A DNA stretch of 62,477 nucleotides, filler included, from Actinobacteria bacterium UBA7524 (GCA_002478275.1; 7 parts of 7 records of this genome joined end to end with filler, not necessarily neighbours in it), one strand, 5' to 3'; shown: positions 236 through 17,069, numbered from the whole stretch's first letter. Translations and numbers: made by a program. The notes: generated from the letters alone by a model not told the origin.

Positions 236-1117
236 CTAAGCCTCTTCATCCCGGTCCAACGCCTCAATCATCTTCCGAGCCTCCCACTCTTCGGCACGGC
301 TGCACCGCAGGAGTCGCCCCTCTTCCGCGTCAAGGTCACGAAGGAAGACAAAGCGATTTCGCACGTCATCGATCCAGCGAATGATGTCAACGGGCGTGGT
401 CAGATAGCCGATAGCCTCAGGCTCGAACTCGGCCTCGCTCCGGGGCCGAAGTATGTCCTCAGGGTCCCACGGCTTCTCGCCCAGACCGTCGTCGACGACA
501 TCCGACCAAACCTTGAGAGCCGTCATTCGCCTGACAAGCGGCTCGTCGAAAGGACGATGAGACAACCACGCGAGGTCGTACAGGTCTCGCGCAAGGCTGG
601 TGCGGCGATATCGCGCCAGCTTCTCGGCGATCACCTCTTCGATTCGGGCCGTAGGAATCGCCGGCAGCAGGACGTCGTACTGTGCGTGGATGGGAAGTGG
701 CAGCGCTGGAAGCCGTTCGGGCGACAACCAGAGTCCACGTCGTCCGAGGTCGAGCCGAGCGGGCACCTCCGTGTCCCCGAACTCGCTGGCGATATGCAAC
801 AACATCCGTTGCGTGCCATTCAACGGCTCGAGTTCAAACGTAAACGGGCCGACCTGGGCACCCTGAACGATCTCGATGAGCAGGTCGGCAGTCGCGTCGC
901 CCATACCAGCGAAGTCAAGATCGGTCGAAAAGCGACCGGCATTGCCCGCGCGGAACTTGCGGATGGCGGTTCCGCCTTTCAGAGAGACATCCAACTCGAA
1001 GATTCCGGCTTCAGAGAGATGGGCCAGCAGATGATCTTGGGCAATATCGATGATCGCAGGCCCGCGTCCTCCTTTGCGTCCCTGGTAGTGGCGAACTAGG
1101 TATCCCTCGGTAATCAC
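236..1117 (-). CDS. Type IV TA toxin, AbiEii/MenT-family nucleotidyltransferase (resembles Rv2826c/MenT4)
   Basis: KGGTAIRK...RFSTDLDF motif, EKL and ARDLYDL C-terminal motifs; overlaps upstream antitoxin by 4 bp. Confidence 0.9.
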   Translation of the reverse strand: MITEGYLVRHYQGRKGGRGPAIIDIAQDHLLAHLSEAGIFELDVSLKGGTAIRKFRAGNAGRFSTDLDFAGMGDATADLLIEIVQGAQVGPFTFELEPLNGTQRMLLHIASEFGDTEVPARLDLGRRGLWLSPERLPALPLPIHAQYDVLLPAIPTARIEEVIAEKLARYRRTSLARDLYDLAWLSHRPFDEPLVRRMTALKVWSDVVDDGLGEKPWDPEDILRPRSEAEFEPEAIGYLTTPVDIIRWIDDVRNRFVFLRDLDAEEGRLLRCSRAEEWEARKMIEALDRDEEA

Positions 1118-1917
1118 TCGGCCGACACCTCCACTCCGAAGGTGTCCACGACGTCGAATCGGGCGTCATAGCGTCCTGAACCGCGTCTCCTTCCCAGATA
1201 GAACGGACCCGTTCCCGGAGGCGCCGAGTCCAGAAGCTGCTGCGCCTCAAGTTCTTTGCCGCCCTTTGAGAGAAGATAGGCGACACGCGCCCAGGCGCTG
1301 CGCGACCGTCCTTGGAGTTCCTCTTCGACAGACTGTGGGTTCGCCCGTCCCACACCCTGCCGGAGCCATTCGCCAACGTTGGGCCAGTCACGATAGGCAG
1401 CCGGCTTCGCCCCCATGAAGGCAAGAAGCGTGTCCACCGACCAGACCGGCAAACCCCCCTTGACCACGCGGCTCTCCTTGGGGACCCATCGCACCAGTCT
1501 CATTTCGGACAGCGCTTTCGGAAGCCTCACACCATCAGGCGCACCGATCACCTCCACGTCGGGGCGTCGACTTACAAGACCCAGGAGGTAGGCTGCCGAC
1601 TCGGCGCCGACCGAAAGCGGCAAAGAAGGTCGATGGGCCAATGTTGCCCGCAGTTCGATGAGGGGATCTCCCGAACCGAATGCCCCGGCTCGGGCGCCGG
1701 GAGCGAACTCCCATACTCCACGGGTCTTGAGGTCCAGCAACCAACCAGCTTCCCGCAGCCGCCTAACGGTGACTTGGACCGGCCAATCCAGGCCGACGTT
1801 CGTTGACCATGATTCGAGCTGTTCTCGAGTCACAACTCTCGGCTGCTCTAGCTCCAATTGCTGAACCAGCGGAGCCATCTGTTTCGTCACGTTCCGCTTA
1901 GCTGTCATTTCGCACAC
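1114..1917 (-). CDS. Type IV TA antitoxin, AbiEi family (resembles Rv2827c/MenA4)
   Basis: wHTH-like N-terminus (LELEQPRVVT...LREAGWLL...RGVWEF); coupled to AbiEii toxin. Confidence 0.85.
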   Translation of the reverse strand: MCEMTAKRNVTKQMAPLVQQLELEQPRVVTREQLESWSTNVGLDWPVQVTVRRLREAGWLLDLKTRGVWEFAPGARAGAFGSGDPLIELRATLAHRPSLPLSVGAESAAYLLGLVSRRPDVEVIGAPDGVRLPKALSEMRLVRWVPKESRVVKGGLPVWSVDTLLAFMGAKPAAYRDWPNVGEWLRQGVGRANPQSVEEELQGRSRSAWARVAYLLSKGGKELEAQQLLDSAPPGTGPFYLGRRRGSGRYDARFDVVDTFGVEVSAE

Positions 1918-3343: not shown

Positions 3344-4079
3344 CACATCATGAAGTAGTGGATGATGCGCATGTTCATGGGGCCGTTGACATACTCCAGT
3401 CCGGCCTGGAAGAAGGGCCAGTCCATCACGGGAGCGTAGATCGCGAATCCCGTGTACGCCATGAAGTACGTCAGCGGGATGGTCGCGAGGTAGGCGATCT
3501 TCTGCAGAACGCCGTACTTGGCTCCGAGCGGGTGGTCCTTCTTGAGGAACAGATAGTACTTGATCCACGGGATCAACTGGTGGCGGTTGGCCTGCTGCGG
3601 CAGCCNNNNNNNNNNNNNNNNNNNNNNNNNNNNNNNNNNNNNNNNNNNNNNNNNNNNNNNNNNNNNNNNNNNNNNNNNNNNNNNNNNNNNNNNNNNNNNN
3701 NNNNNNNNNNNNNNNNNNNNNNNNNNNNNNNNNNNNNNNNNNNNNNNNNNNNNNNNNNNNNNNNNNNNNNNNNNNNNNNNNNNNNNNNNNNNNNNNNNTG
3801 CGGCAGCCAGTTCTTGATGTCCGTGTCCTGCTCACGCGTACCGAGCATGACAGCGCTCTTGACGAAGAACGCTGCGATGATCCGGAAGGTGAGGTTGATG
3901 ATGAGCACGTACATGAAGAAGAAGTGCATACCGCGAGCGACACCCATGAATCCCGCGAAGAACGGGAAGTGGATGTAGAAACCTGAGAAGGCGAGTGCCA
4001 CCATGGCGATGAGGTTGATCCAGTGCGTCAGCACGAACACCATGGGGTGAGCCTCACGATAGTGAGCTGGGTGCGACAT
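3344..4079 (-). CDS. hyaC: Ni/Fe-hydrogenase b-type cytochrome subunit (gapped, 3' truncated)
   Basis: HWINL, RGMHFFF, KYGVLQKIAY and RIIHY heme-b motifs; directly after the large subunit. Confidence 0.9.
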
Positions 4080-5723
4080 CTACTTCACCCCCATCGGCTT
4101 GGTGTGGATATGGGCTTCCTTGCCGGTCTTCGGTTCAATCACGTGAACCGCGCACCCGATTCAAGGATCGAAGCTGCGAGCGACTCGAGCGACGTTGAGC
4201 GGCTTTTCCACATCGGCGACGGGAGTACCGATCAGCGCCTCTTCCATCGGTCCGCGGACACCGTTGGCATCACGCGGAGCTATGTCCCAGGTTGTGGGAG
4301 CCACGACGTTGTAGCGGTCGATCTTGCCGCCCTTGATGTCCATGAAGTGCGCGACCGAGCCGCGTGGGGCCTCCCAGAGGCCGTAACCAGAACCGTCGAC
4401 GACATCGTGCGGCTCGAAGAGCTTGACGTCTCCGCCCTTCATGGCCTCGATGACCTCACCGACGAACTGTTCGGCCAGGTCCGCCACGTAGACAGCCTCG
4501 AGGTTTCGGGCTGCAACACGGCCGAGGAGAGATACCAGCACCTCGGGCTTTCCGCCGGCGCCAAGTGCCTCCAGCGTACCGTCGATCAGGTCCTGAACAG
4601 GCTTCACACCACGTACATATGCGACGACCATGCGCGCGAGCGGGCCGACCTCGGCAGGCAGGTCCTTATAGCGTACGGCTTTGCCCCACGAGTACTTGCC
4701 GTCCGTGTCGTATTCGACGTACTCGGCCTCGGTCTCGCCGACTTTCGGGTTCAGACCCGAAGGCGACTTGTACCAGGAGTGCTCCGTGTACTCTTTGACG
4801 TTGTCGACATCCACGTCTTCGACGCCGAGGCTCGCACCCTCGGAGAAGCCGGCCGGCAGGTACCTGTTGTTGAGCTCGAAGCTCGGGTCGTTGAACACGC
4901 CCCACGACAGGAAGTTGCCTCCACCGCCACCGAACTCGAGCGCGGCCGCGTAGAACGGTGCGATCGCCAGGGTGTCGGGGATCATAGCGTCACGGATGAA
5001 TGCATTGACCTTCAGGAGCCGGAACAGGATGTCGTCAAGCTTCTCCTCGGTCGGAACGAAGGTCGTTCCGCCATTGACCGACGTCATGAAGTGCGGGAAC
5101 TTGCCCCCCATGATGCCGATGATGGCTGCGGCCTCCGCCTGCATCTCGAGCGCCTCAAGATAGTGGGCGACCGCGATGAGGTGGAGCTCAGCAGGCATGT
5201 CTGCGGCGTACTCGGGATGGCCGAACCAGCCGTTGGTGAAGATGGAGAGCTGTCCGTTCTCGACGAACGCCGCCAGTCTCTTGGCCACTGCCCCGAAGTC
5301 CGATACACGCGTGCCTGCCGCCTGGGCAAGAGCGTACGTATCGGCGATGTCGGCGGAGAGCGCCTTGACGGGGTCTACGTAGTCGAGGGCACCGAGCGTG
5401 TAGAACCACAGGATGTGACTGTGCAGATATTGGGCGCATTCGATGATGTTGCGGACGAGTCGTGCGCCCTCGGGGATCTGTACGCCCATCGCGTCTTCCG
5501 CGGCGGTGGTCGATGCGTGTCCGTGGGATATGGGGCACACACCGCAGATCCGCTGTGAGATGTAGAACGCGTCTTGCGGGCGGCGGCCCTTGAGCACGGT
5601 CTCCATGCCGCGGTACAGCGTACCGGAGACCCATGCGTCCGTGACCTCGCCGCCGTTGACTTCGACTTCGACTCTGAGGTGACCCTCGATACGGGTCAAC
5701 GGGTCGATAACCGCGCGTGCCAC
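4080..5723 (-). CDS. hyaB: Group 1 [NiFeSe] hydrogenase large subunit (selenocysteine at UGA 4161-4163)
   Basis: TRIEGH, L1 RICGVC; reading through TGA gives SFDP-U-IGCAVH-VIEPKTGKEAHIHTKPMGVK and a TAG at 4080-4082 abutting the hyaC ATG. Confidence 0.92.
4131..4150 (-). promoter_or_regulatory. Candidate bacterial SECIS hairpin
   Basis: mRNA CGGUUCA-CGUGAU-UGAACCG, a perfect 7-bp stem starting 10 nt after the in-frame UGA. Confidence 0.6.
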
Positions 5724-6898
5724 TATTTACCGCCTCCCTTCTTGCGATCGTGTTCCTTGGCTTCCTCGTAAGGAGCTCCGCCGTCCATGCGGCCGGTGGC
5801 CTTCATGCCCAGGCCATGTACGGCGAGAGCCGCGACAGCAGCAGCCCCGACAGCAGCGCCTACGATGGTCGGCTGTGTGATGGTCTCGCCGATCAGTATG
5901 TCCCGATGACGGTTCAGGAACGGTACGCCGACATCGACCCAGTTGCCGCCCGCCTTGAGGGGGTTGGCCGAGCCGCAACCGATGCAGGGGGCACCGGATT
6001 CGACGCACCATGACGCGAGTCTGTTCCAGCGCACTATCGGGCAGTTCGTGAAGGTCTGCGGACCTTTGCAGCCCACGGGGTACAGGCAGTAGCCCTTGGC
6101 CTCTTCCGCTGAGCCGAACTCGTAGACGAACTCGCCGTTCTCGAAGTGCCCGCGGCGGGGGCAGTTGTCGTGTATCGACTGGCCGAAGATCAGCTTGGGT
6201 CGACCGAACGAGTCGAGCTTGTCGAGGATCTTACCGCTTTCCAGCGAGCCGAGCAGCAGGACGTCGACGACCATAGCCACCACCCACTCGGGATTGACCG
6301 GGCACGTGGGAAGGTTGATGACCGGGGTCGCGATGTCGTTGCGAGTGCAGAACTCCTGGACGCCGATTCCCTCGGCTGGATTGGGCCTTGCGGCCACCCA
6401 TCCGCCGTCCACAGCACACGATCCAACCGCAAGGATCGCTGCCGCGTTGCTGAACAGTTCGGGCAGCTCCTCTGTCTGCGGGTGTCCCGCGATGCGGAGG
6501 GTGTTGCCGTCTGCACCTGTCATGACGGTGCCTTCGTAGATACAGACGTAGCCACCCGCTTCCATCAGAGCCTTCTTTGCGTCCTCGGCATCGTCACCCT
6601 GGGCCATCATGACCGTCTCGAAGTACTCGATACTCAGTAGGTCGAGAACGACCGTAGCGACGTCAGGGTACTGGACCTGTGCCATGGACTCGGTGCAGCC
6701 GGTACAGGCGCCGCCGTTGACCCACAGTGCGGGCGTGAGCTTGGCGCCCTTCTCGACTGCCGCGGCGATCGCCGGGACCATGGACTCGGACAAACCGAGC
6801 ATCGCCGCGACCGAGCCGCAAAACTTGAGGAAATCGCGACGCGTCACTCCACGGAACGCGAGCATCGACTCGAAAGCGTCGTGGTCCTCATGTGCCAT
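5723..6898 (-). CDS. hyaA: Hydrogenase small subunit, Tat-exported, with C-terminal TM anchor
   Basis: TRRDFLK twin-arginine signal, CTGCTES, GSCA, IHDNCPRR, CLYPVGCKGP, PCIGC; RBS AAGGAGG before ATG at 6898. Confidence 0.93.
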   Translation of the reverse strand: MAHEDHDAFESMLAFRGVTRRDFLKFCGSVAAMLGLSESMVPAIAAAVEKGAKLTPALWVNGGACTGCTESMAQVQYPDVATVVLDLLSIEYFETVMMAQGDDAEDAKKALMEAGGYVCIYEGTVMTGADGNTLRIAGHPQTEELPELFSNAAAILAVGSCAVDGGWVAARPNPAEGIGVQEFCTRNDIATPVINLPTCPVNPEWVVAMVVDVLLLGSLESGKILDKLDSFGRPKLIFGQSIHDNCPRRGHFENGEFVYEFGSAEEAKGYCLYPVGCKGPQTFTNCPIVRWNRLASWCVESGAPCIGCGSANPLKAGGNWVDVGVPFLNRHRDILIGETITQPTIVGAAVGAAAVAALAVHGLGMKATGRMDGGAPYEEAKEHDRKKGGGK

Positions 6899-7011
6899 GC
6901 CATACACCTCCTTGTTCAGTAACGTGACCGGCTAGCGAAGATCTTGCGAGTTGGCCGGGAGCGGGACGAGCAAGGATCCGCACCCGGTTCGCGACAGGGG
7001 ACGTTCGGCAT

Positions 7012-7118
7012 CCTCCTTTCCTGCTGAAGCAGAGACAGCGCGTACGAGTCGCGAAACAGGGGAGCACGCAGCCGATGTGGCCGTATGCAGGGTTCCCCGG
7101 GTTTCCAGGATCGGAGTC
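7012..7118 (-). ncRNA. Moco/Wco riboswitch-like cis element (tentative)
   Basis: Minus strand ACTCCGA...ACCCGGGG...TACGG...CTGC-TTCA-GCAG-GAAAGGAG; CTCC/GGAG closing helix and GGAAAGGAG end resemble the Moco RNA motif. Confidence 0.4.
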
Positions 7119-7484
7119 ATGGAACTGTGTGTGATCGTGGGAAGCTGCGATGCCCCATGGGCGTTGCAGTGAGGTTCGGTGTAGTTCGATTCGGTGCGTG
7201 TCTGAGACGAGACCCGCCTCATGACCGGGGAGACTCAACCGCTGGCCTGTCTCCTGCCCAGCGCTGGCACGTTACTCGTAGCCCCCTTGATGTCATCGGG
7301 GTGTAGACCCGTGTCCCAAATACACCCATGACATGTCGTCGTGTATCGGCCTCCGTTGCGTTGTGCATATTCTACCCATCATCAGCGCGTAGTACCACCA
7401 GAATCTGGCCCTGACTACACCTGGCCCGTCCAGGGCATGAACTTATGTGCAGCGACGGTCTCGGCTGATGGAGGTGTGAACGAG

Positions 7485-7676
7485 ATGAGCGCGAGCAAGC
7501 ATCAACGATCAATCACCGGTGAGTGGCCAGCCATCCCTGGGTCAGACGAAGAACTCGACGCGGCATCGGAAGCGTGCGAGCATGAGAGGGAGGAGATGAC
7601 TCCGCGACAGACCGCCGATTGCGCAGGCGCGGACATAGCCCAGGCGTACGAGAACGAGGAAGACGGCGGTTCATAG
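7485..7676 (+). CDS. Small acidic hypothetical protein
   Basis: RBS GGAGGT upstream; acidic 63-aa ORF. Confidence 0.5.
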   Translation: MSASKHQRSITGEWPAIPGSDEELDAASEACEHEREEMTPRQTADCAGADIAQAYENEEDGGS

Positions 7677-7732
7677 CGAACTATGTCACTCGTAGGATCT
7701 TCCGCGACAAGACGGCAGGGAGCGCTCAGGCG

Positions 7733-7996
7733 GTGGCTTCTGGTTCCCACAATGGTCTGGTGATCGACGTCAGGGGATTCACTCCCGGGCTTCGACGACC
7801 GATCGTTTTCGCGATCGTCGACAAGATGCTGTCGCTCGAATCTGACGACAGTCTTGTCGTGATATGCGATCACGAGCCTGCTGGCCTTGGCTACCAGCTC
7901 GACTTGCGGAAAGAGACCAGAGGCATGTATGAGTACTTCTACGACCAGCGTCTTGACGGTGCATGGGTTGCCTTGATCAGGCGTAAGTCGAGCTGA
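7733..7996 (+). CDS. DUF2249 domain-containing protein
   Basis: IDVRG..P..R...VF......L...D.L.VI.DHEP pattern. Confidence 0.7.
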   Translation: MASGSHNGLVIDVRGFTPGLRRPIVFAIVDKMLSLESDDSLVVICDHEPAGLGYQLDLRKETRGMYEYFYDQRLDGAWVALIRRKSS

Positions 7997-8018
7997 CCTC
8001 GACAGACTGGCCGGTCGC

Positions 8019-8714
8019 TCAGTCGATTCTGGTGAGCAGGTCGGCGAGGTCGGTGAGCGTGCCTCGGTAGTCTGCAGAAGTCACCTCGAAGCTTCCGACA
8101 TAGAACGTCTTCATGCCGATGTCTGCTGCCGCCAGGTCCAAGACCGGGTCGTCTCCGACCATAAGACAAGAAGCCGGAGGCACATCGAGCATGGCGGCAG
8201 TCTCTCGGAAATAGGCCGGCTGAGGCTTGCACGCTGTCATCGTTTCGAAACTCGTGATCACATCCACGTCTTCGGGCGAGACCCCGGCCCACGACATCCT
8301 GTGCTCGATCGCGCGCAACGGGAAGATGGGGTTCGTGGCGACCGCAACCCGCATACCCCGATTCCTGGCGGCATCCAGTGCCTCTCGCGTTCCGGGCGAC
8401 GGGCCGATACCTTCACCGAGACCGGGAAACACCTCTTCGTAGAATCGCTCGAACACCGGCCGACACTCCTCGAAGGAGAATCCGGAGAGCAACTCGTACT
8501 CCTCGGCGAATACATCTTCGTTGGTGCGCCCCGGATGCACCTGCATCATGGCGCCCGTCGAGTCATGGATGGCTTTCATGACCCGGGCGTGGATATCGTC
8601 GGTATGCGCGAAGGTCTCCACTGCTTCTGCGAGTGCCCGGAAGTAGACGGCAAGGAACGCTTCGATGTCGATGTCGAGCAACGTGCCATCCAGATCGAAC
8701 AGTACTGCTTTCAT
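8019..8714 (-). CDS. HAD-family hydrolase
   Basis: FDLDGTL motif I, ATNP, KP, VGDD...D motif IV. Confidence 0.92.
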   Translation of the reverse strand: MKAVLFDLDGTLLDIDIEAFLAVYFRALAEAVETFAHTDDIHARVMKAIHDSTGAMMQVHPGRTNEDVFAEEYELLSGFSFEECRPVFERFYEEVFPGLGEGIGPSPGTREALDAARNRGMRVAVATNPIFPLRAIEHRMSWAGVSPEDVDVITSFETMTACKPQPAYFRETAAMLDVPPASCLMVGDDPVLDLAAADIGMKTFYVGSFEVTSADYRGTLTDLADLLTRID

Positions 8715-8785
8715 GGCGCGGTTCGCCTCCGGTGGTCGTTATCGGGTTCGGCAGATGTTAGCACGTGACGCAAGAGAAGAGAGGG

Positions 8786-8815
8786 TTGACGGCGGGATAC
8801 CCCCGGGGGTATGCT
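8786..8815 (+). promoter_or_regulatory. Sigma70-type promoter with CsoR/RcnR-family operator
   Basis: TTGACG (-35) and TATGCT (-10) overlapping the perfect palindrome ATACCCCCGGGGGTAT (8797-8812). Confidence 0.7.
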
Positions 8816-8909
8816 ACGGTTAATCAAAGTTCAGGTCGTCGGCCCGGCGTCCGTGCCCTCCGTAAGGTGCGGGACCCCGGTAGATGATGCGGATGGGAAG
8901 GGAACGGAC

Positions 8910-11900
8910 ATGGCGGCAGTTGGCGAGCGCGTTGGCTCGAAGCTAAGGGATATCTTCGGGGACCGGTATCGGGATGACAGAGTCGAGCGCAAGATGTACT
9001 CGACTGATATCGGGGCGATGCCCCGGTTGGTCAAGCCTTTCGTGCCTTCAGGGATCGCCGGCGCGGTCGTCAGACCCAAGACCGAGGATGAGGTCGTACG
9101 TTTGGTGGAGGCGGCTCGTCGCGATGGTTTCAAGGTCGTGCCTCGCGGTTGGGCAACGTCAGGGTACGGCGGTGTGTTGCCGGTCGACGGTGCGGTGGTG
9201 GCCGATATGTCCGGCATGCACAGGGTGTTGTCGATCGACCATGAGAACATGACGGTCACCGTAGAGGCCTCGGCCATCTGGGAGGAGATCGAGCGCGCCC
9301 TGCACAAGGTGGGACTCGCGCTGAGGCTCTACCCGTCATCCACCCCGTCGTCCGGAGCCGCCGGTTGGTTGGCTCAAGGTGGTGCGGGTTTCGGTTCCTA
9401 CGAATACGGGATGTTCAAGGACAACGTCATCTCCGCCCGGGTCGTTTTGCCCACCGGTGAGGTCCGCGAGTTCACCGGCGACGAACTTCAGAATCACGTC
9501 GCGGACGCGGAGGGCATCACCGGCATCATCACGCAACTCACCTTCCGGGTCAGGTTGTTGGAGCCTGAGACTCACAGGGCGTTCGCATTTCCGGATGCGG
9601 ACTCGCTTGCTGTCGCGTTGAGCGCGATCTCGTCGCAACAGCTTCCGGTGTGGTCCATCACCTTCCTCAATCCTGAATCCATCAGCCTCAAGAAGCAGCT
9701 GCCGCATCGTCATGGACATCCATATGAGGAGGCGCATCCGCACGAGGACCCCGTCTTGCCCGAAGAGTACATCGCAGTCATCGCGTACCCGGATTCTCGC
9801 CGCCCTGCGCTCGATGACCAGCTCGCCGCCATCGTCTCGAACAGTGGAGGCGTGGACCTGGGGTCTGAGGTCGCGGAACACGAATGGGAGCTGCGCTTCT
9901 CTCCGATGCGCCTTAAGAGGGTCGGGCCTTCGCTCGTGCCTACCGAGGTCGTCGTTCCTCTCGACCGGATGGCCGATGTCCTGAAGGCGATCGACCAGAG
10001 GATCTCGCAGCCTTTCATCCTCGAGGGGATGCACGCGAAGGGTGACAACATCGTCCTCCTCGGCTTCATACCGCACGACGAGCGTTCTTTCGCCTTCAAC
10101 CTTGCGTTCGCCCTGTCACTCTCAGTGATCGGTATCGCAAAGCAACACGGAGGTTCCGCGTACTCCACGGGCCTGTACTTCCGGCGTGAAGCCGAAGACG
10201 TACTCGGTCCCGAGAAGGTAGCGGCACTGAAGGCGTACAAGCAGGCGGTCGATCCTGCGGGGATCATGAATCCCGGTAAGGTGCTTGGCCGAGGAGTGAT
10301 CGACTTGTTGATGGGGGGTGCCGCGGTCGCCGAGCCCCTGGTCCGACCCATAGCGAACGCGGCCAAGCCGCCCAGCCGTAACGGCGAGCTCAAAGAGGTG
10401 CGCGGTATTCCGGGAGACGTCGCGTTCATGGCGTACGCGTGCGCGCGGTGCGGATACTGCGTGCCGACGTGCGAGCAGTACACCGGTCGTGGATGGGAAT
10501 CGCACAGCCCGCGCGGGAAGTACGCTTACCTGCGCGAAGTCATGGAGGGACGCGAGAGTTTCGACCGCAAGGCGGTAGACACGTTCCTTGTCTGCACCAC
10601 ATGTGAGGTCTGCAACACGCGATGCCAACTCCAGTTGCCCATCGAGCACAACTGGATGGATATGCGCGGCAAGCTGATTCACGAGGAGAAGCGCGGCACC
10701 TTCCCGCCGTTCGAGATGATGGCAGCGTCGCTGCGTGGAGAGCTCGACATCTGGGCCGGGAAGCGCGAGAACAGGGCCAACTGGGTGCCGGATGATGTGA
10801 AGCCCAAGCTCAAGGACTCGGGTGAGCTACTGTACTTCGCAGGCTGCACGGCGAGCTATGTGGAGACTGACGTGGCCGAGGCGAGCGTACGTCTGCTTAC
10901 AGACGCCGGCTACGACATCGGCTACATGGGGACTGACGAGGCGTGCTGTGGGATTCCGATGAAGGTGGCAGGCAAGTGGGATGTGTTCGAGGAGATATAC
11001 GAGCACAACACTACGGAGGCGCGCAAACGCGGGGCGAAGACCATCGTGACATCGTGTCCCGCGTGTGCACTGGTGTGGAAGGAGATCTACGCCAAGACGG
11101 CAGCTGACCGGGGTGACGAGTACGAGTTCGAGGTCAGGCATTACTCCGAGCTCGTGAGCGAAGCGCTCGGGGAAGGACGTCTCGAACTCAAGAACCCAGT
11201 CGAAGGAAGGCTTACATTCCATGATTCGTGTCATGCCGGACGAGCGCAGGGCCTCTACGAGCCGCCGCGTGAGATGCTCAAGGCGATTCCGGGAGTCGAC
11301 TACGTAGAGATGGAGCACAATCGCGAAGATGGCTACTGCTGCGGTTCCGTGCTGACCCTTGTCGGCGAGATGCCGGTGGCGCCAGTGCTGGGCAAACAGC
11401 GTTTGCAGGAGGCTGTGGACGTAGAGGCGGACACCGTCGTAGCGTTGTGCCCTTGTTGTCAGGTTCAGCTGCGCGACAGCAACATCAAGAATGACCTTGG
11501 ACTTAAGATCGACGACCTCTCTCGCATCGTCGCGCAGGCTGCGGGGTACGAGATTCCCGAGACAACCGATCAGGCGATGTACATGTGGGGATACTTCGAG
11601 AAGTTCATCATCTTGATGCAGCCGGAGCATATGGCGGCGTTGATGGAGCGGATATTCCCTCAGATATGCGATTCGATGCCGTTCGGGATGAAGCCGATGA
11701 TGAAGGCCATGAAGGTCGTCCCCGGTGGGCCTGCCCTGATAGGCAAGACCATGCCGTTCATGTTCCCGCTGCTCATCGATGGGATCATGGGCAAGGTGAT
11801 GCCCGACATGATCAAGGCTGTCGAGGAGTACGTCGGCCCGATGCCCGATGACATGGCGGAGCTGATGCCGGACCTCCTTCCCAAGACGATGGATTCGATG

Positions 11901-11972
11901 ATGCCCACCTACCTGCCCGAGCTCATCCCGCATCTGGTGCCCCGGATGGTCGCCTATATCCAGCGCTGCTAA
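8910..11972 (+). CDS. FAD-linked oxidase (GlcD-like) fused to 4Fe-4S dicluster and two CCG domains
   Basis: VVRP...VPRG..T.GYGG FAD-binding; DPAGIMNPGK; CARCGYCVPTC and CTTCEVCNTRC; CCG motifs; Met/Pro-rich tail. Confidence 0.88.
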   Translation: MAAVGERVGSKLRDIFGDRYRDDRVERKMYSTDIGAMPRLVKPFVPSGIAGAVVRPKTEDEVVRLVEAARRDGFKVVPRGWATSGYGGVLPVDGAVVADMSGMHRVLSIDHENMTVTVEASAIWEEIERALHKVGLALRLYPSSTPSSGAAGWLAQGGAGFGSYEYGMFKDNVISARVVLPTGEVREFTGDELQNHVADAEGITGIITQLTFRVRLLEPETHRAFAFPDADSLAVALSAISSQQLPVWSITFLNPESISLKKQLPHRHGHPYEEAHPHEDPVLPEEYIAVIAYPDSRRPALDDQLAAIVSNSGGVDLGSEVAEHEWELRFSPMRLKRVGPSLVPTEVVVPLDRMADVLKAIDQRISQPFILEGMHAKGDNIVLLGFIPHDERSFAFNLAFALSLSVIGIAKQHGGSAYSTGLYFRREAEDVLGPEKVAALKAYKQAVDPAGIMNPGKVLGRGVIDLLMGGAAVAEPLVRPIANAAKPPSRNGELKEVRGIPGDVAFMAYACARCGYCVPTCEQYTGRGWESHSPRGKYAYLREVMEGRESFDRKAVDTFLVCTTCEVCNTRCQLQLPIEHNWMDMRGKLIHEEKRGTFPPFEMMAASLRGELDIWAGKRENRANWVPDDVKPKLKDSGELLYFAGCTASYVETDVAEASVRLLTDAGYDIGYMGTDEACCGIPMKVAGKWDVFEEIYEHNTTEARKRGAKTIVTSCPACALVWKEIYAKTAADRGDEYEFEVRHYSELVSEALGEGRLELKNPVEGRLTFHDSCHAGRAQGLYEPPREMLKAIPGVDYVEMEHNREDGYCCGSVLTLVGEMPVAPVLGKQRLQEAVDVEADTVVALCPCCQVQLRDSNIKNDLGLKIDDLSRIVAQAAGYEIPETTDQAMYMWGYFEKFIILMQPEHMAALMERIFPQICDSMPFGMKPMMKAMKVVPGGPALIGKTMPFMFPLLIDGIMGKVMPDMIKAVEEYVGPMPDDMAELMPDLLPKTMDSMMPTYLPELIPHLVPRMVAYIQRC

Positions 11973-12021
11973 GAGCAGCTCGCTGGGTCACAGCTCGTTC
12001 GTGTGAGATTGGACCTGCTAG

Positions 12022-12057
12022 TGTGACGAGACTCATCGCATTGTGTCTCAAGTCACA
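12022..12057 (+). promoter_or_regulatory. Tandem CRP-like boxes upstream of Crp/Fnr regulator
   Basis: TGTGA-N6-TCATC (12022-12037) and TGTGT-N6-TCACA (12042-12057). Confidence 0.55.
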
Positions 12058-12083
12058 GTGTCGTCGAGCCGATATCCTCTTAC

Positions 12084-12782
12084 ATGAACGAGCTGCAGAC
12101 ATCTCAGGAGCAAGCGGTAGCCAAACTCAGGGCGATTCCGATGTTCTCGGACCTTTCCGCCGACGACCTCGGTACGTTCGCGTCGATGGTCCAGTTCCGG
12201 CACTACCCCAAAGGTGCGTTCATCGTGAACCAGAATGACTCTGGTTCGGTGATGTACCTGCTTGTCTCGGGTCGGGTGAAGGTTTCGCTCGCTTCTCCCG
12301 ACGGCAAGGAACTCGCCCTCAACTACCTTGAGGCTCCCGCGCACTTCGGTGAGATGAGCCTCGTCGATGCGGAACCACGCTCCGCGGACGTCATCGCCGT
12401 GAGTGACGTCGAGCTCTTCAGTCTCGATGCGAGTGATCTGACCGCCGCGATCCAGCTCAACCCGCGCCTGGCCGTATCGTTGATAGCAACGCTTTCGCGC
12501 CGGTTGCGCAACACGATCGCCAGGCTCGAGGACATGGCGTTTCACGATGCCACGCACCGCGTCATGCGTGTGGTCCTCAATGTCGCCACAGCGAGCTACG
12601 AGTCGCGAGGCGTACCGGTCATAGAGGGTCTGACACACTACGACATCGCCACACTCGCAGGTACGTCACGCGAAACGGCCAGCCGCATCATCTCCAACCT
12701 TGCCAAGGCTGAGGTCGTAGCCACCAAGGGACGCAAGATCGTCGTGGACCTCATTCGACTGAGAGAGCGCCTCGAGGGCTGA
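12084..12782 (+). CDS. Crp/Fnr family transcriptional regulator
   Basis: cNMP domain FGEMSL...PRSA; HTH GTSRETASR. Confidence 0.93.
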   Translation: MNELQTSQEQAVAKLRAIPMFSDLSADDLGTFASMVQFRHYPKGAFIVNQNDSGSVMYLLVSGRVKVSLASPDGKELALNYLEAPAHFGEMSLVDAEPRSADVIAVSDVELFSLDASDLTAAIQLNPRLAVSLIATLSRRLRNTIARLEDMAFHDATHRVMRVVLNVATASYESRGVPVIEGLTHYDIATLAGTSRETASRIISNLAKAEVVATKGRKIVVDLIRLRERLEG

Positions 12783-12867
12783 ACGCATCCTGCGTGTTGC
12801 GTTAGGTCGACTGCCGGCAAGGGGACAAACCCACCAGATCGCCCGATTCACGCATACGGAGGAGACC

Positions 12868-13098
12868 ATGACCGAGTTCACCCTCGAAGATCTCGTCGCT
12901 TACGACGGCAAAGACGGGCGCCGTGCCTACGTGGCCTATCAGGGTGTCGTTTACGACGTCACTGAAAGTGCGATGTGGGGCGATGGCGAACACGAAGCCA
13001 TGCATGATGCCGGTCAGGACCTGACCGAAGCCCATGATGATGCCCCGCATGATGTCTACGTGACGGATTTTCCAGAGGTGGGCAGGTTGTCCGGTTAG
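12868..13098 (+). CDS. Cytochrome b5-like heme/steroid-binding protein
   Basis: FTLEDL..YDGKDG..AYVAYQGVVYDVT...W..G.H...H.AG.DLT.....PH. Confidence 0.88.
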   Translation: MTEFTLEDLVAYDGKDGRRAYVAYQGVVYDVTESAMWGDGEHEAMHDAGQDLTEAHDDAPHDVYVTDFPEVGRLSG

Positions 13099-14399
13099 AC
13101 GGACGCTTCGAACACCGCGACGGTCTCGACATGGTAGGTTTGCGGGAACAGGTCCACCGGAACGGCCAGTCGCAGTCGATATCCTCCGGCGCTTAGACGT
13201 GCAGCGTCTCTTGCCAGCGTACTCGGATCACACGAGACGTATACGATTCTTCGTGCGCCGGTCTTGCACATCGGATCGATGGTGTTGGGCGAAAGCCCGG
13301 ATCTGGGAGGATCGACCAGGATCAGGTCGATCGCACCGAGGTCAGGGAGTACGCGCGAGACGTCTCCCGGCTCGACCTCCACGGGAGATGCGTTCATCTC
13401 GATGTTCCTGCGCAGGTCGCTGACGGCCGGCCCGTAGGACTCAACAGCGATCGTCTCGCCGGCCGTTCGCGCGATCGCATGGGTGAACGTCCCCACTCCG
13501 GCGTACAGGTCCGCGACCCTGTCATCAGGGCCCGCATCGAGCAATTCGATGACCTTTCCGACCAGCAGTTCGGCAGCTGCTGTGTTGACCTGGAAGAAGG
13601 ACGGTGCAGACACCAGCAAGGAGTCTTTCAGGATACGCTCCTTCCAGGCCCCTCTTCCCTTCAGGACCTCGACGCCCGCGATCCTTCGTTGAGCCGCCTC
13701 TCCCTTCGCCATAACGCGTACGACGCCGCTTGCTCCTGTGGCCTGTGTGATCGTGGTTCCCGCGATGCGTCGCGGGAAGGGCCCGGGCGCGGTCCAGATC
13801 GCCACTTCTACGTCTTTGTGGTGGTGGGATACCCTCAGGCCGACGCGTTGTACCTGGAGATCCTCACGGCCGGCGAGGTAACGGAGTGCCCCCCGGAGCG
13901 ATCGGGGTGCCCGGCTCGCGTGAGTGGGCAGCAGTAGGCACTCGTCTATCGCGATCGTCGCGTCACTGCAGTAGCCCTTGAACCCCAGTTCGAGCGGATG
14001 GCCCTCGCGTCTCGTCGCGGACAACTCGATCTTGTTGCGGTAGCCATATGGGGAGGGAGAAGCGACACATGGATCGACCGGCGGTGACGTGTGATGACCT
14101 ATCCGTTCCAAGGCATCTGCGACGACGAGTCGTTTCGCTTCGAGCTGTGTCGGTTCGTCGACGTGTTGCCATTGACAACCTCCGCAGACCCCGAAGTACG
14201 GGCAAGGAGGGGTCACACGAGAAGTCGATGGTTCCACCACGTTGACAAGGTGCATATGGACGTATCTGGGGTGTTCTGTCTCTACATGAGCTTCAACCAC
14301 GTCACCGGGGCACGTCGCGGGAACGAATGCGACGCGGCCGTCGGACAGATGCGACACTCCTGCACCGCCGTAGGCAAGGCGTTCGATCTGAAGGCGCAT
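13095..14399 (-). CDS. rlmD: 23S rRNA (uracil-1939-C5)-methyltransferase
   Basis: TRAM domain, CPYFGVCGGC Fe-S motif, SFFQVN, DLYAGVG, DPPRSG, YVSC, DLFPQTYHVE. Confidence 0.92.
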   Translation of the reverse strand: MRLQIERLAYGGAGVSHLSDGRVAFVPATCPGDVVEAHVETEHPRYVHMHLVNVVEPSTSRVTPPCPYFGVCGGCQWQHVDEPTQLEAKRLVVADALERIGHHTSPPVDPCVASPSPYGYRNKIELSATRREGHPLELGFKGYCSDATIAIDECLLLPTHASRAPRSLRGALRYLAGREDLQVQRVGLRVSHHHKDVEVAIWTAPGPFPRRIAGTTITQATGASGVVRVMAKGEAAQRRIAGVEVLKGRGAWKERILKDSLLVSAPSFFQVNTAAAELLVGKVIELLDAGPDDRVADLYAGVGTFTHAIARTAGETIAVESYGPAVSDLRRNIEMNASPVEVEPGDVSRVLPDLGAIDLILVDPPRSGLSPNTIDPMCKTGARRIVYVSCDPSTLARDAARLSAGGYRLRLAVPVDLFPQTYHVETVAVFEASV

Positions 14400-14624
14400 G
14401 AGTTCTCGATCCAAGGATGGTCCATTCAGGATGAGTCCGCGCTCGCGTGAGCACGGCACGTGGGAATGCGGTCCGATACGGGAAGTATACTAGCGCGATG
14501 TGGGTTCGCGGCTATCGGTGCGCATCACACGACCTGCTACAGTAGGTGTCGCGCAACACCGATACTACTTTCGTCGAATGCAGCCGGGCATCGATGCGCG
14601 GTTCGAGTAGGAGGGTGTCTCCAG

Positions 14625-16727
14625 GTGGCAGAGAAGAAGGTACTGATCGTTCACGAGGACGCTGGACTCATCGAGAGCATCAAGTCCGGAGTCCTTCAGT
14701 CCGGAGCCGACATGGACGTCGTGAGCGTGATATCGGGTCCCAGGGCGCTTGGGATGATAGAGGCGCAGTCTCCCACGGTCATCGTGGTCGACGCTGAGCT
14801 GGAGGGCATGGACGGCTATGCGCTCACGCAGCAGATAAAGGCCGGTGTCGGCGGCGACGCCCCGGTCATCATCCTTTCACTTCAACCCGGCGAGGCATCC
14901 GCGCTGCGCGCCCGGCAGGCGGGCGCTGCGGCCCATCTGCCCTCGACGGGAGCGGTCGACGCGATCGTCGCCAAGATCCTGGCGCTCGGGGGCGTCGACG
15001 GCGCAGGGGGGCAGCCGGATGCGAGTGCAGCCGCGCCGCAGCCGGCCGCCGCATCCGCTCCCGGTCAGACGGCGGCTTCACCATCCGCGCCTGCAGAGCC
15101 GATGGGGGTTCGATCCGCGACCGAGGGTGGAGCAGGCGCGCCGCCTGCAGCCCCTGCNNNNNNNNNNNNNNNNNNNNNNNNNNNNNNNNNNNNNNNNNNN
15201 NNNNNNNNNNNNNNNNNNNNNNNNNNNNNNNNNNNNNNNNNNNNNNNNNNNNNNNNNNNNNNNNNNNCGAGTTGTCCGCGACGAGACGCGCGCCGCCTGC
15301 AGCCCCTGCGCCTACGCCGGCCGGCTCGCCGCTCGGCGGGGACGGGGTGCCCAAGCCGGTGGGGGCACCATCGCCATCGGCTCCCGCTTCGGCTGCAACG
15401 CCTGGCCCTCAGACCGCAGGCGGGTTCGGTTCGGGTGTACCGCAGCCTGTCGGTGCACCGTCGCCCGCTGCTGCTCCCAACGCAGCCGGCTCAGCTTCGC
15501 CGGGTTCCGATGCTCCCCACGTCGATGACCTGCTGCGTCTGATGTTGGAGCGCGGTGGTTCGGACCTGCATATCACGGTCGGGAGTCCCCCCGGCATACG
15601 CCAGCGCGGGGAACTCGTCCAGGTCGAGAACATGCGGCCGGTGACGCCCAGGGATGCACAGGAGATGATCTTGGGCCTGCTGTCCGAAGAGCAGAGACGC
15701 CGGTTCGAGACCGAGCTCGAGCTGGACTTCGCTTACAGCATCCCGGGGGTCTCCAGGTTCAGGGCGAACGTCTTCCAGCAGCGCAATTCGCTGGGCGCGG
15801 TCTTCCGCGTGATTCCTATCACCATCCCGACGCTGGAGGAGCTCGCCCTTCCGAAGGTCTGCAAGTTCCTCTCCGAGCGTCCCCGTGGTCTCGTTCTGGT
15901 AACTGGGCCTACGGGTTCAGGTAAGTCGACCACGCTGGCGGCGATNNNNNNNNNNNNNNNNNNNNNNNNNNNNNNNNNNNNNNNNNNNNNNNNNNNNNNN
16001 NNNNNNNNNNNNNNNNNNNNNNNNNNNNNNNNNNNNNNNNNNNNNNNNNNNNNNNNNNNNNNNNNNNNNNAAGTCGACCACGCTGGCGGCGATGATCGAT
16101 CACATCAACGACACACGCCCCTTGCACATCATCACCATGGAAGACCCCATCGAGTTCATGCACAAGAACAAGCGCGCTTACGTCAACCAGCGCGAGGTCG
16201 GTGAGGATACCCATTCATTCGCGGCTGCTCTCAAGCGGGTACTGCGTCAGGACCCTGATGTGATCCTTGTCGGTGAGATGCGCGACCTTGAGACGATCTC
16301 CGCCGCCATCACGGCGGCCGAGACCGGCCACTTGGTGCTTGCCACTTTGCATACGACAGGTGGACCGGAGACGGTCGACCGTATCATCGACGTCTTTCCT
16401 CCACACCAGCAGCAGCAGGTTCGCATGCAGCTTTCCAACACACTCGAAGGCGTGCTCTCCCAGGTCCTGTTGCGCAGCACCGACGGTCGCAGCCGCATTA
16501 TGGCCATGGAGATCATGCTTGGTATCCCGGCCATCCGTAACTTGATCCGAGAAGGGAAGACACACCAGATGGCGACCATCATCCAGGGTGGAGGTTCCCT
16601 GGGTATGCAGACCTTGGACCAGCATCTCAGGACCTTGCTGCAGGGAGGTAAGGTCACTTTCGAGGAGGCAATCGGCAAGGCCCAGAATCCCAGGGAACTC
16701 GCCGAGGCCGTCGGCCGCAAGGTCTGA
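14625..16727 (+). CDS. pilT: Type IV pilus retraction ATPase PilT with N-terminal receiver-like domain and Pro/Ala linker (two gaps)
   Basis: SDLHI, RFRANVF, GPTGSGKSTT, EDPIE, LRQDPDVILVGEMRD, TGHLV.ATLHT, AIRNLIRE; duplicated gap flanks allow an in-frame join to the REC domain. Confidence 0.8.
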
Positions 16728-16757
16728 CGCCGGGGACCGGTCGCGAAAGGGGCAGAT

Positions 16758-17069
16758 TTGGATACCATACGTGTCCGCCGGAGCGCCAAACGGCAGCTCG
16801 TGGCATGGGACGACTCCGGACATGCGATCGTCATGGACGCCAGGACCGAATACAAGGGCGAAAGCACCGGCATGCGGCCGCTTCAGGTCGTACTTGCCGG
16901 CCTTGCCGGCTGTACTGCGATGGATGTCATATCGATACTCGAGAAGAAACGTCAGGATGTTCGGGCCATCGAGATCGAGGTCGAAGCGGACCAGCGTGAG
17001 GATGACTTCCCCAAGATCTACACCGCCATCAGGATTCACTACCTGGTCACAGGCTATGGGGTGTCGTCG
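16758..17069 (+). CDS. OsmC/YhfA family protein (3' truncated)
   Basis: GMRP.Q.VLAGLAGCTAMDVISILEKKRQ. Confidence 0.88.

Follow-up and report, generated by a model that had tools for sequence, protein, structure and literature searches.

The window analysed here, a stretch of 62,477 nucleotides of DNA (joining filler included) from Actinobacteria bacterium UBA7524 (GCA_002478275.1), carries on its minus strand the gene for the large subunit of a hydrogenase with an in-frame TGA close to its 3' end. From the sequence and its conservation, this UGA, codon 521, very probably encodes selenocysteine (Sec) at the position of a nickel ligand. The best explanation of the locus as a whole, in which we place high confidence, is an operon of three genes for an H2-uptake hydrogenase that is anchored in the membrane, faces the periplasm and has Sec as Ni ligand. 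The source organism is an uncultured member of the Anaerosomatales (earlier name OPB41), an order of the class Coriobacteriia. The large subunit gene and the elements contained in it are the following:

4080 to 5723, minus strand: predicted [NiFeSe] hydrogenase large subunit gene of 547 codons (one of them UGA, codon 521) and a TAG
5523 to 5552, minus strand: N-terminal Ni-binding motif RICGVCPISH (Cys60, Cys63), from translation and alignment to solved chains
4143 to 4169, minus strand: C-terminal Ni-binding motif D-P-U-I-G-C-A-V-H, residues 519-527, from translation and alignments
4161 to 4163, minus strand: putative UGA selenocysteine codon, residue 521, from translation and the conservation of TGA among orthologues
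4131 to 4150, minus strand: hairpin resembling a selenocysteine insertion sequence (SECIS), with a 7-bp stem CGGTTCA/TGAACCG and a 6-nt loop CGTGAT, from folds, alignment and pair counts
4083 to 4142, minus strand: 20-residue C-terminal extension VIEPKTGKEAHIHTKPMGVK, from translation; conserved, and aligning with the tail of Desulfovibrio vulgaris

With the TGA translated as U, the large subunit comprises 547 residues and ends in ...ARVARSFDP-U-IGCAVH-VIEPKTGKEAHIHTKPMGVK. It matches PF00374 with 533.6 bits (cut-off 25.8) and contains both Ni motifs, RxCGxCxxxH and DPCxxCxxH with U for the first Cys; alignments to solved [NiFe] large subunits place the TGA codon on that first Cys. An earlier note on this DNA, in which the strand was absent, had described an open reading frame stopping at SFDP with the TGA on the Ni-ligating Cys of the L2 motif, and a readthrough product with a 20-residue tail reaching a TAG immediately before the start codon of a cytochrome b gene. 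The alignments and the translation bear out both descriptions: under translation table 11 the frame has 520 amino acids and ends at SFDP, the TAG stop lies at 4082-4080, and the cytochrome b ATG begins at the very next base, 4079.

Conservation of the codon was followed in 60 genomes of the same order, belonging to 25 families. All full-length orthologues of at least 61% identity have exactly one in-frame TGA, and their alignments extend past it to the last residues; the sole exception among full-length orthologues is the Cys-type protein of genome G011, at 59% identity. In the loci fetched from related genomes, TGA occupies the Cys column in 29 of 29, with the frame conserved to the last residues in every one. 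From public bins of uncultured Coriobacteriia or Actinomycetota 80 loci were obtained, six of which end before the motif, the remaining 74 being composed of 73 with TGA and one with TGC. Of the alternation of Cys and TGA that the earlier note had proposed to check, these loci show almost only TGA, and the codon is not unique to this assembly. Of the 99 sequences that contain the motif, 98 have TGA in the Cys column, as do five further loci that have Gln for the motif His. Beyond the motif the frame remains open and conserved for 19-24 codons and ends beside the cytochrome b start; in several orthologues the true stop is itself a TGA, immediately before the cytochrome b ATG. The five loci with Gln (L052, L100, L101, L105 and L107) are Sec-type, with the motif DP-U-xGCGVQ, and the His that is changed in them is the residue after which the maturation protease normally cuts.

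A scan of the class covered 301 genomes and gave 166 matches, 150 of which were listed and counted by hand. Among the matches listed, 98 had TGA and 52 did not; at identities of at least 59% TGA was found in 96 of 100, and, unlike the Sec forms of the order, the orthologues of three other families of the class, at 47-55% identity, were Cys-type throughout. Three genomes (G089, G101 and G126) each carry one Sec and one Cys copy, which suggests selenium-responsive isoenzyme switching, as known from Methanococcus. A search of 1.84 billion representatives of 50% clusters gave 500 matches at E up to 1e-30; the best 150 of these 500 comprised 81 with a Cys-type motif, 5 ending at DP and 64 fragments or variants, numbers that are no measure of Sec frequency because each cluster is represented by one arbitrary member. 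Two further observations concern the same codon. Locus L160 (G160:C24) has Ser at the Sec/Cys position (SFDPSATCAVH), and a second family of hydrogenase large subunits in the same order, at 43-46% identity, also has one in-frame TGA (G053:C31, G009:C18, G023:C32, G036:C86, G054:C1 and G017:C4), with a protease gene directly 3' in several loci.

The hairpin begins 10 nt 3' of the TGA and has a G at loop position 2. It fits the minimal SECIS of Escherichia coli, with its 10-nt spacing and early loop G. A conserved G at position 1 or 2 of the SECIS loop has also been reported (PMC13582414). The hairpin was aligned in 73 distinct sequences, those of the window and 72 loci, with the five Gln loci and the single Cys locus left out. 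Across them 95.3% of the 511 stem cells pair, all seven pairs are formed in 57 of the 73 Sec forms, and pairing falls to 55% or less when the partner is slid by one column. At pair 14-33, 41 sequences have G-C and 19 have C-G; at pair 15-32 the numbers are 47 and 25, respectively. None of 500 shuffles reached the covariation score of 0.216 (shuffle mean 0.063). Hence the 7-bp hairpin that had been noticed 10 nt after the TGA holds, at 4150-4131, with compensatory changes behind it. The structure covers the codons from Ala525 to Pro531 and straddles the predicted protease cleavage site, the first tail codons forming its 3' half. Since the switches of stem pairs alter the protein, the RNA pairing is visible as coupled amino-acid changes, Ala525 (GCG) going with Pro531 (CCG) and Gly (GGC) with Arg (CGC). 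The 11 Cys-type relatives compared keep the tail and form 0-6 of the 7 stem pairs. The Cys-type second copy of G126 (L153, on G126:C22) retains 6 of the 7 stem pairs, which gives it the look of a recent conversion from Sec to Cys.

The tail is, on the alignments, probably an ordinary maturation peptide, with cleavage predicted after His527. It measures 19-24 amino acids and is conserved in the Sec forms, and a homologous segment of 20-23 amino acids is present in Cys-type relatives; most of the 81 Cys-type representatives among the best 150 cluster matches have a tail of about 12-20 residues. The earlier note took as established that the [NiFeSe] large subunits of Desulfovibrio stop at the L2 His and have no tail for a protease to remove. 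This does not agree with the D. vulgaris sequence deposited under 5JSU and 5JSH, which has 507 residues, 15 of them after the His, and these can be aligned with the tail of the window protein. The same enzyme, 5JSU, is the best solved-chain match of the C-terminal 70 residues, with 79.3 bits and an alignment that reaches into the tail. The Desulfomicrobium baculatum operon includes a specific protease that removes the C-terminal extension of the large subunit, which pairs with the small subunit only once this section has been removed (PMC10362691). A homologous tail is thus common to the [NiFeSe] enzymes of group 1a and to the window enzyme, with a dedicated protease on the D. baculatum side, and the D. 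vulgaris tail together with the D. baculatum protease makes a tail on a Sec enzyme normal. Of 61 relatives, 59 have a maturation protease (PF01750), which frequently lies 1-3 kb downstream of the large subunit; in the family of the window's own genome it is not beside the operon.

The large subunit gene is the middle one of an operon at window positions 6907-3346 (minus strand), located at the start of contig C45 (window 3344-17069) and composed of a small subunit with a twin-arginine translocation (Tat) signal, the large subunit and a cytochrome b:

5723 to 6907, minus strand: hydrogenase small subunit gene, 394 amino acids as listed; TIGR00391 283.7 bits (cut-off 179.5)
3346 to 4079, minus strand: cytochrome b gene; PF01292 37.9 bits (cut-off 30.1) and TIGR02125, both on the part before an internal gap

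The small subunit has the Tat signal RRDFLKF (TIGR01409, 23.3 bits; cut-off 16.7), matches both PF14720 and PF01058, and ends in a C-terminal hydrophobic stretch judged by eye to be a membrane anchor; its TAG stop shares one base with the GTG start of the large subunit. The operon with a Tat small subunit and cytochrome b that the earlier note described is therefore present in the domain matches, and the two components are those of a membrane-bound, cytochrome b-linked uptake type. Locus L064, 82% identical, has an operon of exactly three genes, with neighbours as in the window. Cytochrome b is cut by the contig end near residue 178 of about 225, and contains a run of 193 N (3606-3798) with ...IKNWLP before it and LPQQANRHQL... 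after it, two residues being repeated. The run was considered as masked codons and this was ruled out, as the residues continue directly across it in comparison with the complete L064 orthologue; the scaffold gap is thus mis-sized and no codons are missing. The part beyond the gap scores 29.5 bits against PF01292, and the complete 225-residue L064 orthologue 81.7 bits. Near 3850-3950 the read depth jumps in a separate assembly of run X1.

Beside the medial cluster the small subunit has Cys instead of Pro, reading SWCV versus NWPV in three standard [NiFe] enzymes (1H2A_S, 1E3D_A and 1YRQ_A). A fourth Cys ligand replacing Pro at the medial cluster marks [NiFeSe] enzymes, and in work on Desulfovibrio fructosovorans and Desulfomicrobium baculatum such a Cys reportedly predicts a [4Fe-4S] medial cluster. 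As Cys replaces the usual Pro, the medial cluster of the window enzyme is predicted to be [4Fe-4S].

Taken as a mechanism, Sec would be inserted at UGA521 via SelB and tRNA-Sec, directed by the hairpin 10 nt downstream, which is made from the codons of the last motif and of the first tail residues. Hyp proteins would insert the metal centre, after which an endopeptidase of the HycI/HybD type would cut behind His527 and release the 20-residue tail, and the Tat system would export the processed dimer. Three FeS clusters would then carry the electrons of H2 to haem b and on to the menaquinone pool; the type of the clusters and the coupling to quinone are what we infer from the composition of the operon.

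Several points weigh against a Sec enzyme. Insertion of selenium at codon 521 is itself deduced, the assignment being drawn from nucleotide data. Four Sec sequences form the stem pairs only with a one-base shift, and a scan of window positions 3900-4400 against Rfam returned no family for the hairpin. Both NCBIfam models of [NiFeSe] enzymes give the protein scores below their curated cut-offs, NF033181 with 509.8 versus 600 and the HysA model NF045518 with 430.6 versus 780. In the own genome, G000, a metagenome assembly of 1.81 Mb in 60 contigs and 82.9% complete, selA and the maturation protease were not found, selB gave partial matches and none above cut-off, and the 28 tRNAs listed by ARAGORN include no tRNA-Sec. 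Genome G001 (96% complete) has the TGA and no selA, selD or tRNA-Sec in its assembly; G004, of the same genus, has a selA fragment. Two candidates were set aside in these searches: the Tymo_tRNA-like match of the Rfam scan (11.9 bits, E = 7) is due to chance, so that no curated family covers the hairpin, and the best G000 match to RF01852 (43.4 bits, cut-off 47) is a tRNA-Ser according to ARAGORN. The partial selB matches are, at a guess from their extent and a nearby tRNA, other translation GTPases. As a consequence of the two scores below cut-off the window protein is not filed as a member of HysA or of NF033181, the best-scoring family here, which may, at a guess, model the Firmicutes [NiFeSe]-cytochrome b group; the low scores may be why Sec-aware annotation misses the enzyme.

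G000 and its relatives do use Sec. In G000 the start of selD, reading SKAG-TGA-AAK, lies at a contig end (G000:C37:55908-56099), and two fdhA-like genes have one in-frame TGA each (G000:C23:10315-11100 and G000:C9:707-1480), all of them outside the window. The truncation of selD by the contig end may account for the rest of the sel cluster missing in this assembly. The search for sel genes and a protease that the earlier note recommended yielded a selD fragment in G000 and none of the other components. Among the relatives, 51 of 61 genomes have selA above cut-off. Five genomes were examined for tRNA-Sec and selD, and three of them (G002, G028 and G022) have tRNA-Sec at 72-75 bits (cut-off 47) and a TGA-containing selD, with tRNA-Sec, selA and the Sec-containing selD clustered in G022. 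In G011 (99% complete), which has the Cys orthologue and no Sec copy, the searches found no selA, and no selD or tRNA-Sec above cut-off. Cys forms were seen in the class's other families and in G011, the genome in which no Sec machinery turned up; this suggests that the Sec/Cys state tracks the machinery and that Sec is the rule in the order.

The presence of this machinery also bears on a different decoding of the codon, by which UGA would be read as Cys through a SECIS-dependent SelC*/tRNA-ReC, and the product would be an ordinary [NiFe] enzyme, unusually encoded. Transfer RNAs that decode UGA as Cys given a SECIS occur in some genomes with Sec-type hydrogenases (PMC13582414), and the incomplete G000 did not yield a canonical tRNA-Sec. 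However, on searches aimed at the canonical machinery and not at tRNA-ReC, the canonical tRNA-Sec, selA and Sec-containing selD of the relatives, as well as the TGC/TGT-type orthologue of G011, a genome without that machinery, make reading as Cys highly improbable.

Barely credible is the proposal that the TGA is a true stop, leaving a decaying or shortened hydrogenase without its last two metal ligands and an untranslated frame downstream. Gene callers end 114 of the 120 nearest database homologues at SFDP (the other 6 are Cys forms), and TGA is the usual stop of G000, terminating 193 of its 362 open frames of at least 500 codons and being the commonest terminator. Against this, roughly a hundred orthologues at 59-100% identity keep in frame the 26 conserved downstream codons, among them those of the remaining Cys and His ligands, a covarying hairpin stands at SECIS distance, the same residues follow the Cys codon in Cys-type relatives, and growth on H2 is recorded for the order's cultured members (PMC9686372). 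With TGA as the normal terminator of the genome, recoding would be specific to codon 521 and would involve no changed genetic code. The earlier note expected that standard annotation would call the gene a pseudogene; it is indeed cut short at SFDP, but is held in databases as a 520-residue protein. That the annotation of a Sec hydrogenase can be cut at the UGA was already remarked (PMC4730141). As the public protein sets are without the last two metal ligands, hydrogenase or selenoprotein surveys that start from called proteins would misread these enzymes.

An error of sequencing or assembly, with TGC or TGT as the real codon, has a negligible chance, for although the bin is fragmented and a mis-sized scaffold gap lies 360 bases off on the same contig, the codon recurs in independent assemblies from many studies, and an assembly of run X1 shows 0 differences from window 3850-4850 across 1001 bases, an agreement that is not independent if X1 is, as it may be, the source sample. 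Short contigs of relatives from runs X2 and X3 (DNA) and X4 (metatranscriptome) span 4119-4191, and among the matches listed there is no difference at 4161-4163; these contigs were used for no conclusion, and the RNA contigs are no proof of transcription.

Among known hydrogenases, the Sec enzyme of the window putatively belongs to HydDB group 1i, the 'Coriobacteria-type', by the published class of two cultured strains and by orthology across the order. These strains are Anaerosoma tenue and Parvivirga hydrogeniphila; their gene cluster, assigned to group 1i [NiFe], encodes both hydrogenase subunits together with cytochrome b and a protease, and both of these Anaerosomatales grow on H2 (PMC9686372). 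The window enzyme shares with group 1i (PMC9686372; defined in PMC5037454) the order and the three-gene cluster, with the protease adjacent in many relatives, and the orthologues are 59-85% identical across the order; it differs in that the published enzyme is called [NiFe] and the present one would contain Sec. In the available text of PMC9686372 'selen' appears only for selenate and selenite as electron acceptors, with no selenocysteine in the enzyme. In the HydDB paper the groups listed with [NiFeSe] variants are 1a, 3a and 3c; group 1i is not among them. Among the papers listed in literature searches, with subscription journals and supplements outside them, none mentioned Sec in hydrogenases of the Coriobacteriia or of group 1i.

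With the [NiFeSe] enzymes of group 1a from D. vulgaris Hildenborough (2WPN, 5JSU) and D. baculatum (1CC1) the window enzyme has in common the position of Sec, at the first Cys of DPCxxCxxH in all of them, but their clusters are without a cytochrome b subunit, unlike the window operon. Over the whole length these [NiFeSe] enzymes are the more distant ones, with 342 bits in two stretches, versus 428-440 bits for standard Desulfovibrio [NiFe] enzymes. The latter (D. fructosovorans 1FRF and D. vulgaris Miyazaki 1H2A; group 1b) are the best full-length solved matches for both subunits, and differ in having Cys and not Sec at the active site motif, and Pro and not Cys beside the medial cluster. The partner of group 1b enzymes is the soluble cytochrome c3, whereas the window operon has a cytochrome b.

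A comparable gene arrangement is found in Syntrophaceticus schinkii, whose three-gene [NiFeSe] cluster has a Tat small subunit as well as a subunit resembling cytochrome b and is syntenic in Thermacetogenium phaeum, Carboxydothermus hydrogenoformans and Desulfosporosinus orientis (PMC5113046). In these Firmicutes clusters the Tat small subunit, the Sec large subunit and the cytochrome b-like third gene stand together and the maturation genes are elsewhere (PMC5113046, PMC3551663); they belong to a different phylum and are likened to the window operon by published description alone. The new 'quinone-coupled Sec hydrogenase type' suggested in the earlier note is accordingly not new in its layout, since three-gene clusters of this kind were already in print. 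Both the cytochrome b layout and the tail are ordinary, and only Sec in group 1i of the Anaerosomatales was not found in print.

Characterised [NiFeSe] hydrogenases come from a few sulfate reducers and methanogens, and are prized for their fast H2 production and their quick recovery after exposure to oxygen. According to a 2016 paper, [NiFeSe] genes have been inherited by few sulfate-reducing deltaproteobacteria (PMC4730141), and a 2026 paper regards the discovery of Sec variants within a new hydrogenase group as a finding in its own right (PMC13582414). A Sec hydrogenase tied to cytochrome b is very probably the rule in an entire subsurface order of the Actinomycetota. We consider it somewhat more probable than the opposite that the environmental branch of group 1i in the Anaerosomatales consists of selenium enzymes; in that case the first respiratory [NiFeSe] hydrogenases of actinobacteria would have gone unrecognised in two cultured isolates that oxidise H2.

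At least seven contigs of a single metagenome bin (C44, C45, C46, C47, C48, C50 and C58) make up the window, joined by paired 44-N spacers and with additional N gaps within contigs, so that genes on either side of a spacer are not genomic neighbours. On contig C45 the operon is adjoined, in the window and in L064 alike, by a gene for a HAD phosphatase (8019-8714, minus strand) and by one for a protein of 1053 residues in which a GlcD-like, FAD-linked oxidase is fused to an FeS/CCG-domain part resembling LdhH, GlpC and HdrD (8811-11972, plus strand). The short contig C44 carries an AbiEi antitoxin and AbiEii nucleotidyltransferase toxin pair, of the type IV toxin-antitoxin or abortive infection kind (236-1917, minus strand). 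A second [NiFe] large subunit is encoded about 25 kb away from the operon on the same contig C45, outside the window (G000:C45:26752-27897), in an open frame of 444 residues with no in-frame stop.

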